NCBI RefSeq assembly: GCF_003790525.1
Contig: NZ_CP033635.1
Origin: Escherichia coli
GTDB lineage: Bacteria > Pseudomonadota > Gammaproteobacteria > Enterobacterales > Enterobacteriaceae
Length of the DNA: 64,000 nt
Strand: one strand, 5' to 3'
Within the stretch, counting starts at the first letter, position 1; each line of letters starts with the position of its first letter. The notes under the pieces are model-generated. The model did not search any database and was not told where the DNA came from. It saw nothing but the letters and a program-made list of their open reading frames with translations. Position numbers and translations under genes: made by a program. Below, in pieces: positions 61,423 through 61,529 of this stretch.

Positions 61423-61529
61423 TACAATGCGGGCGAAAAATAAGGATGCCCCGTTAGGGGCGTTAGCTGAGTTTTTCGCGAAAAATTCAGCTAACGCTCT
61501 CTGTAATAGTCAAATCCAGGGGATTTACC

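Follow-up and report, generated by a model that had tools for sequence, protein, structure and literature searches.

The purH leader and its hairpins

The subject of this work is a near-perfect palindrome in the leader of the purHD operon, located within a stretch of 64,000 nucleotides (nt) of Escherichia coli DNA (RefSeq assembly GCF_003790525.1, contig NZ_CP033635.1) that is referred to here as the window. The purH start codon occupies positions 61530..61532 of the + strand, as judged from the RefSeq annotation of the matching K-12 region and from N-termini that are 98% identical in related loci; in K-12, the region lies between purH and the divergent rrsE. The promoter is marked by the PUR box, the PurR operator of purHD (61407..61422, +, GCGCAAACGTTTTCGT), which lies outside the hairpins. 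No other site in the window matches the PUR consensus, and the same 16-mer is given as the purH-purD PurR site in PMC3159470. The box is directly adjoined by a putative -10 hexamer, TACAAT (61423..61428, +). Between the promoter and the start codon, the sequence can be divided into a small G+C hairpin, HP1 (61449..61460, +), a long stem-loop formed by the palindrome itself, HP2 (61460..61497, +), a pyrimidine-rich conserved tail, CUCUCUGUAAU (61498..61508, +), and a third hairpin, HP3 (AAAUCC-AGG-GGAUUU; 61512..61526, +), which includes the Shine-Dalgarno (SD) region AGGGGA (61518-61523) and whose pairing probability in E. coli is ~0.6.

HP2 was delimited by a repeat finder as two arms, 61460-61478 (GCGTTAGCTGAGTTTTTCG) and 61479-61497 (CGAAAAATTCAGCTAACGC), of 19 nt each, 95% complementary and with a spacer of 0 nt. 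Only G61471 and T61486 fail to form a Watson-Crick pair; read as RNA, the + strand has a G.U wobble there, and the - strand a C.A mismatch. An earlier, sequence-only reading of this DNA had described the repeat as having 18-bp arms with one bulged base and a CG loop; the repeat is indeed present, but the arms measure 19 nt, the supposed bulge is the G:T opposition, and the 'CG loop' is, at the DNA level, the palindromic centre of the repeat. The placement of the repeat between the PUR box and the purH start codon was correctly given, HP2 beginning 38 nt 3' of the end of the PurR operator and 32 nt 3' of the -10 hexamer, and ending 32 nt before the ATG at 61530. In K-12, HP2 corresponds to NC_000913.3 4,207,565-4,207,602 on the complement, a window position p mapping to 4,207,532 + (61530 - p). 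HP2 is the top-ranked tight inverted repeat of the entire window, and the number of occurrences of its pattern expected in shuffled sequence is 0.00; a chance origin of the palindrome is excluded.

At the RNA level, the E. coli leader (116 nt) folds with a minimum free energy (MFE) of -40.1 kcal/mol, a z-score of -4.3, and none of 200 shuffled sequences folding as well. The MFE helix comprises 20 bp, in which 61457-61476 pairs with 61481-61500, closed by a CGCG tetraloop at 61477-61480. The 20-bp helix thus extends beyond the palindrome, involving GGGG at 61457-60, with which C61497 and the first 3 nt of the tail can pair. The same GGGG is also the 3' strand of HP1, in which it faces CCCC (61449-52) across a GUUA loop with a predicted stability of -6.8 kcal/mol; HP1 adjoins HP2, and is the small cccc...gggg hairpin that had been noticed ahead of the repeat (CCCC-GTTA-GGGG in the DNA, 61449-61460).

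Conservation and covariation in Enterobacterales

Evidence that the palindrome is maintained as a structure comes from a comparison of 80 purH loci, one genome per species, 45 of which belong to other Enterobacterales. The long stem was found in 35 of these 45 leaders, distributed over Enterobacteriaceae, Erwiniaceae, Yersiniaceae and Brenneria (genera Escherichia, Citrobacter, Enterobacter, Kluyvera, Pluralibacter, Cedecea, Pantoea, Erwinia, Serratia, Yersinia, Rahnella and Brenneria), and is missing from Morganellaceae, Budvicia, Rosenbergiella and Edwardsiella. Conservation at the stem base takes the form GGGG-CGUUA(G/C/U)CUGA ... UCA(N)(N)UAACG-CUCU, with the 3' motif TAACGCTCT, or one-base variants of it, aligning in all 35 leaders, and the helix, including its GGGG:CUCU closure, measures 19-34 bp in every one of them, none being shorter. 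The conserved arm motifs are separated by anything from 21 to 72 nt, and the palindromic centre CGCG is not kept even in Citrobacter or Phytobacter. Identity per column among 17 Enterobacteriaceae follows the same division, reaching 88-93% in the stems, 65% in the HP1 loop and 24% at the HP2 apex.

The two arms remain in register across these leaders, with pairing at nearly all positions. Among the compensatory switches, one position changes from G-C to C-G, U-A or U.G, others change from U-A to C-G, and single lineages have A-U in place of G-C. In a MAFFT alignment of 33 leaders, 90.4% of cells are standard pairs, a share that falls to 38-51% once the 3' partners are displaced by 1-3 columns; both partners have changed in 11 of 20 pairs, and in 500 column shuffles the observed value was never attained for any of five measures. 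Given the same 33-sequence alignment without an input structure, RNAalifold predicts HP1 and the base of HP2. Among the non-Watson-Crick oppositions, 106 are G.U and 13 A.C, the core helix accounting for 40 and 8 of these, respectively. This points to an RNA read from the purH sense strand, although many of the G.U cells share ancestry, so that this excess is taken as supporting, and not as proving, that orientation.

RNA folding and covariation of enterobacterial purH leaders had been set beforehand as the test of the stable RNA stem-loop proposed for this site. The outcome was a 20-bp helix whose pairing is conserved in related species, and the stem-loop has held up: pairing is compensatory in 35 of 45 leaders, the oppositions are mainly of the G.U type in the sense strand, and the structure lies downstream of a conserved -10 hexamer. 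Compensatory pairing and variable loops, at a position predicted to be transcribed, support the classification of the element as a conserved cis-acting structured mRNA leader. Within the species itself, BLAST matched the region in 5419 out of 5426 complete genomes. The 103-nt leader reaches 99% identity or more in 5392 of these 5419, and being almost invariant within E. coli, it yields no further covariation at this level.

A separate observation concerns the purH leader of Photorhabdus caribbeanensis (locus L037 in our numbering), which, at about 400-560 of that locus, is ~120 nt longer than in its relative L044. The extra segment (..GAATCCCTGGGAGC...CAACAAAGAGGCAACTTGAAAGATAACGGGTATAG..) resembles an ERIC/IRU-type repeat inserted into the leader hairpin.

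Promoter and putative transcription start

The reading of HP2 as RNA depends on where purHD transcription begins. Each of the 45 other Enterobacterales purH loci has a PUR box, and the hexamer directly following it is TACAAT, TAAAAT, TAGAAT or TATTAT, thus varying across taxa within the -10 consensus; in one Pasteurellaceae locus it is TATAAT. From this conserved -10 hexamer beside the PUR box we infer a purHD transcription start near 61435, which would place the hairpins inside the transcript. With regard to control of initiation, PurR and RbsR are named as transcriptional regulators of E. coli purHD in a 2024 review (PMC10912719), while another paper names PurR, RbsR and PhoP.

The surroundings of the promoter display several further features. 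The discriminator between the -10 hexamer and the putative start (GCGGGC, 61429-61434) is G+C-rich, as it is in other Enterobacterales and in the divergent rrnE P1; a G+C-rich discriminator is the pattern of promoters inhibited by ppGpp/DksA. In Yersinia nurmii and Y. thracica (L027 and L033), the PUR box lies 274-286 nt 5' of the ATG, as opposed to ~107-187 nt elsewhere, and additional structured sequence is found between the promoter and HP1. The interval that separates the purH promoter from the rrnE P1 upstream region contains a perfect DnaA-box 9-mer, TTATCCACA (61312-61320, +), which occurs as a single copy in the 64-kb window and in the same orientation in 43 of 45 other Enterobacterales purH-upstream regions, at 145-344 nt 5' of purH in loci L002-L063. 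We know of no role for this 9-mer near purH.

The divergent arrangement of purH and a 16S rRNA gene extends across Enterobacterales, with 16S matches at 1-871 in L024 and 1-910 in L041, most draft contigs (L002-L038) ending 150-700 nt 5' of purH; purH is not beside a 16S gene in Vibrionaceae, Aeromonas or Pasteurellaceae. On the rRNA side, a sub-threshold Rfam match to 'Yersinia sRNA 197' (61035-61268, -; 118 bits against a gathering score of 167) covers the rrnE promoter/leader region 5' of the 16S gene, and this family probably models an rRNA-operon leader.

HP1, the tail and the Shine-Dalgarno region

HP1 accompanies HP2 in most species, a C-rich/G-rich hairpin of 3-5 bp ending beside the long stem in ~32 of the 35 leaders. 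The GGGG segment that it shares with HP2 has two potential partners: CCCC, forming HP1 (-6.8 kcal/mol, as above), or the CUCU of the tail, extending HP2 with a gain of about -8.6 kcal/mol. The extension is chosen in the E. coli MFE structure and by RNAalifold on a close alignment, while HP1 is chosen by RNAalifold on a wide alignment; in these folding models, HP1 and the GGGG:CUCU closure are near-isoenergetic alternatives. Double changes maintain HP1 in some leaders; in one of them (L013), the change is CCUC/GAGG, which breaks the GGGG:CUCU extension.

HP3 behaves differently in different families: its stem is invariant in Enterobacteriaceae, with a loop base that varies (A/U/C), and in the leaders compared it is absent outside this family. 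A conserved switch in which the SD would be sequestered by the CCCC of HP1 or by CUCU was considered, and is not supported, since partition-function folding of the 35 leaders predicts SD partners that differ between species, being the local HP3, a UCC in the coding region, or the CCCC of HP1. A CCCC:GGGG(SD) pairing proposed by RNAalifold on the close alignment includes no pair changed on both sides. In this respect the element differs from the pyrC and pyrD leaders, with which it shares a nucleotide-biosynthesis gene, a PurR-type operator at the promoter and a hairpin in a short leader. In pyrC and pyrD, the leader hairpins work by start-site switching that sequesters the SD; in purH, HP2 excludes the SD, the SD partners vary by species, and the region of the putative start is not conserved.

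Two observations on short signals in this region are given for completeness. An AUG at 61446 (in AAGGAUG) opens a three-codon frame, Met-Pro-Arg-stop, that runs across HP1 (61446-61457); about half of the leaders retain this AUG, which opens other short frames in some relatives and is absent in many. A leader peptide from this AUG was rejected, the frame and its stop not being conserved among relatives. The tail CUCUCUGUAAU, by eye, holds a TGn-AATAGT motif resembling an extended -10.

Relation to known families, repeats and operators

The sequence-only reading had found no assigned function for the palindrome, and searches of databases and literature are in agreement. An Rfam cmscan of 60500-62000 at E <= 10 gave no riboswitch or leader family over the element, the only match there being mir-725 (23.8 bits against a gathering score of 76), a chance hairpin match; RefSeq carries no annotation at the palindrome, and in the literature searched no searchable paper prints the element sequence. 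A 9-nt identity with 16S rRNA (AGCUAACGC) is within chance. With no database or paper found that explains it, HP2 stands as an orphan conserved leader structure.

The ZTP riboswitch (pfl motif, RF01750) is a known structured purH leader, having been described as mostly associated with purH in other bacteria (PMC10912719). The two share the gene, the location in the leader and the conservation of a structured RNA. However, the purH element is a simple hairpin with no pseudoknot or conserved loop, and in E. coli no internal loop, and no match to the ZTP covariance model was obtained even at E <= 10.

REP, BIME and ERIC sequences are likewise imperfect intergenic palindromes able to fold as RNA, and the palindrome had already been described as not being a REP element. 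This description stands: unlike such repeats, HP2 is single-copy in each E. coli genome, BLAST finding one locus per genome in 5419 genomes, so that a mobile element is rejected as well; the second 'place' reported in E. coli genomes is the same palindrome read on the opposite strand. Furthermore, a covariance model built from the element found no other copy in the window and none outside the purH leader in the 80 loci.

Regulatory DNA sites and other motifs fared no better. A second PUR operator was rejected, because nothing in 61449-61500 matches the 16-bp consensus ANGCAAACGTTTNCNT with up to 2 mismatches, the only match being 61407-61422. Cra/LacI-type half-sites (GCTGA...TCAGC) and a NagC/Mlc-like centre, TTTTTCGCGAAAAA, were both dropped for want of conservation at the relevant bases or of a fitting geometry, and a K-turn suggested by CUGA with UGAUG in Erwiniaceae was dropped because the arms are symmetric.

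A different leader hairpin in Vibrionaceae and relatives

Outside Enterobacterales, the purH leaders of Vibrionaceae, Aeromonas and Oceanisphaera carry a different long hairpin, ~40-140 nt 5' of purH (loci L040, L042, L043, L045-L048, L050-L053, L056-L059, L067, L068, L072, L074 and L081). Its base is AAAGGUCUUUACCAAAAC...GUUUUGGCAAAUAUCUUU, also given as ..GGUCUUUACCAAAAC...GUUUUGGCAAAUAUCUUU.., with variants that keep the pairing (UUUCCC/GGGAAA, UUUGGC/GCCAAA, UUUGGU/ACCAAA); the apex varies, and an A.C mismatch recurs. A scan of eight such loci gave no Rfam family, and the enterobacterial covariance model does not match this hairpin.

In its position, its long helix, its covarying base and variable apex, and a base that is purine-rich on the 5' strand and pyrimidine-rich on the 3' strand, the hairpin of Vibrionaceae and Aeromonadaceae resembles HP2. 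It differs in having no detectable sequence similarity, no HP1 and no rRNA operon beside purH, the latter holding for Vibrionaceae, Aeromonas and Oceanisphaera purH genes with the hairpin and being at variance with the enterobacterial arrangement. The presence at the same place of an equally long, covarying hairpin that is unrelated in sequence suggests that it is the long helix itself that counts in the purH leader. Such a helix recurs independently of adjacency to an rRNA operon, though it is not indispensable, three Vibrio species (L039, L049, L054) being without the hairpin.

A probable cis-acting RNA structure in the purHD mRNA

The explanation that we favour, with a probability of roughly 55%, is that the palindrome is the DNA counterpart of an RNA structure that is conserved, acts in cis from the 5' untranslated region (UTR) of the purHD mRNA and influences the fate of that mRNA. 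A transcript starting at ~61435 would present ~13 unpaired, A-rich nt, followed by HP1 (4 bp), HP2 (17-20 bp), the tail CUCUCUGUAAU and a hairpin at the ribosome-binding site (RBS). Selection appears to keep at least about two turns of double-stranded RNA with a specific base sequence, while the upper part of the stem may vary and lengthen. A helix maintained in this manner would be expected to act on the mRNA once transcription has begun, and not to serve as an operator in the DNA.

As to the step at which HP2 could act, an entry site for RNase III is ranked first, tentatively and by analogy. RNase III needs roughly 20 bp, or about two helical turns, of double-stranded RNA, and the rpsO-pnp leader, the rnc leader and the adhE 5' UTR are examples of E. 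coli leader hairpins that it processes. The helix has the length of a substrate, with 20 bp in the E. coli MFE structure and 19-34 bp in the 35 leaders. Like those leaders, that of purH offers a long, near-perfect helix of ~20 bp or more in the 5' UTR, between the 5' end and the RBS, that tolerates mid-stem mismatches and conserves its length more than the sequence of its apex, and it is this combination, expected where recognition is specific for double strands, that suggests RNase III. Cleavage would leave a fragment with a 5'-monophosphate that decays faster. Unlike the known leaders, that of purH lies outside the published site lists, in the parts of them available, and there is no autoregulatory logic for purH, because PurH is not a ribonuclease.

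A close, though somewhat less likely, alternative is that the HP2 helix is a passive obstacle that shields the downstream mRNA from 5'-end-dependent RNase E. As with stabilisers of the ompA type and other obstacles to RNase E, a stable structure 5' of the coding region could hinder decay that depends on the 5' end. Classical ompA-type stabilisers sit within a few nt of the 5' end, whereas in purH ~13 unpaired nt would precede HP1, which would begin at about +15 given the putative start at ~61435. In either mechanism, the choice between HP1 and the GGGG:CUCU closure of the HP2 base could modulate the action of RNase III or RNase E.

A number of observations weigh against a purely structural element of this kind, and against one or the other of its proposed modes of action. 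The excess of G.U oppositions is inflated by shared ancestry, with independent events estimated at roughly 10 versus 7. Conservation is stronger in the 5' arm, with its nearly invariant CUGA, than in the 3' arm, and in other species C often faces C or U in a mid-stem mismatch. The unpaired tail CUCUCUGUAAU displays 97% identity per column in 17 Enterobacteriaceae, equal to the stems; taken together, tail conservation, CUGA bias and mismatch hint at sequence-specific recognition beyond a purely structural role. With regard to RNase III, the available part of the published site list of PMC5371410 includes only the rrsE leader site in the purH-rrsE spacer, and Altuvia 2018 (PMC6212723) finds RNase III to be selective in vivo, with no mention of purH in the main text; such studies may have missed purine-limited conditions, in which purHD transcripts are most abundant. 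By the putative start, the hairpins would begin ~14 nt from the 5' end, and the element would not be a classical 5'-terminal stabiliser. The absence of any leader hairpin in the Vibrio species L039, L049 and L054 indicates that the leader helix is dispensable in places. Finally, the literature searched contains no experiment that ties HP2 to a function.

Alternative explanations

The alternative that fares best, though unlikely, is a transcription attenuator. In this model, a weak intrinsic terminator would consist of HP2, its base closed by GGGG:CUCU, together with a U-rich tract after it; HP1 would serve as an antiterminator that keeps the base open, with a signal or factor shifting the balance. 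The architecture is suggestive, in that GGGG can pair with CCCC or with CUCU and all three segments are conserved, and U makes up 4-8 (mean 5.6) of the 12 nt that follow the stem, most in Erwiniaceae and Serratia (e.g. CUCUUAUUUAUU, CUCUUUUAUUGC). In E. coli, however, the tail CUCUCUGUAAUA (5 U in 12) has no U-tract, and a terminator scan makes no call for HP2 on the + strand. The compensatory change in L013 keeps HP1 while breaking the extension, and neither a leader peptide nor a sensor was identified. The available part of the supplement of an E. coli 3'-end map (PMC7815308) holds no purH entry, which is weak evidence.

Almost as well placed is the possibility that HP2 is the binding site of a trans-acting factor, whether protein, small RNA or metabolite, regulating purHD in addition to PurR; in the metabolite case, it would be a functional counterpart of the ZTP riboswitch. 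The sequence of the stem base is conserved beyond the needs of pairing, as seen in the nearly invariant CUGA and in the tolerated mismatch opposite C, and the conservation of the unpaired tail CUCUCUGUAAU speaks for recognition as well, as do the association of the ZTP riboswitch with purH elsewhere (PMC10912719) and its absence here, and the second, different long hairpin of Vibrionaceae purH leaders. A ligand pocket is nevertheless difficult to accommodate in the E. coli stem, which is a perfect helix with a 4-nt loop and no internal loop or junction, all loops being variable. The element is single-copy in E. coli, hence there is no regulon; the SD-pairing partners are inconsistent between species, and the literature searched gave no small RNA or protein interaction with purH.

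A structure without present function, such as the slowly drifting relic of an old palindromic insertion, is improbable. It would agree with the fact that no function is known and that Morganellaceae, Budvicia, Rosenbergiella, Edwardsiella and some Vibrio lack the stem; it is opposed by compensatory changes at 11 pairs across four families, by stems that are conserved while loops are free, by a leader that is near-invariant in 5419 E. coli genomes, and by the lack of further copies that would mark a mobile element.

The sequence-only reading had also entertained a protein-binding DNA palindrome, and this is disfavoured by the same data. As a DNA element, the near-perfect 38-bp palindrome with its A+T-rich centre could be the operator of a dimeric protein or, given the divergent 16S gene beside purH in the window as in other Enterobacterales, a cruciform that absorbs negative supercoiling from the divergent rrnE operon; the arm motifs GCTGA / TCAGC, by eye, have what we take to be a resemblance to LacI-family operator half-sites. 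A fixed site for a dimeric protein is incompatible with an arm-motif distance that varies from 21 to 72 nt in the 35 leaders, and a cruciform is unlikely because the apex is not palindromic outside the E. coli group, where the CGCG centre is not conserved. Moreover, the oppositions are mostly G.T, which can pair only as sense-strand RNA, the hairpin does not match the PUR box, and the Vibrionaceae leader hairpin exists with no adjacent rRNA operon, all of which makes a DNA element very unlikely.

Least probable is a terminator on the opposite strand for antisense transcripts leaving purH towards the rrnE promoters: the scan does flag GCCCCTAACGGGGC followed by ATCCTTATTT on the - strand (61461-61448), and an A-rich leader start is common in other species, but the U-run begins 4-5 nt after the stem and is not conserved (e.g. 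Citrobacter, L016), the E. coli wobble becomes a C.A mismatch on that strand, and no antisense promoter is evident.

Significance for purine synthesis in Enterobacterales

The operon purHD is a textbook case of PurR regulation in the best-studied bacterium, and its leader contains a structure selected across four Enterobacterales families. Were the conserved leader RNA only a passive structural feature, it would be a modest addition to the catalogue of structured leaders. In a bolder reading, to which we give little weight, the purHD hairpin and that of Vibrionaceae and Aeromonas would together represent an unrecognised regulatory RNA, providing PurR-independent, post-transcriptional control of the step that consumes 5-aminoimidazole-4-carboxamide ribonucleotide (AICAR, or ZMP) in gamma-proteobacteria. 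Such an RNA could respond to Z-nucleotides, folate status or purine nucleotides, by means of a bound factor or of the HP1 / GGGG:CUCU alternative, and the hairpin would then fill the role that the ZTP riboswitch has in other phyla.

If the hairpin controls mRNA processing, decay or read-through, it would constitute a second layer of control of enterobacterial purine synthesis, at the step that removes AICAR/ZMP. In that case, the different helix found at the same place in Vibrionaceae would indicate a general requirement and not an accident of lineage, and the second layer of control would bear on folate stress, on antifolate action and on the metabolic engineering of purine or riboflavin pathways.

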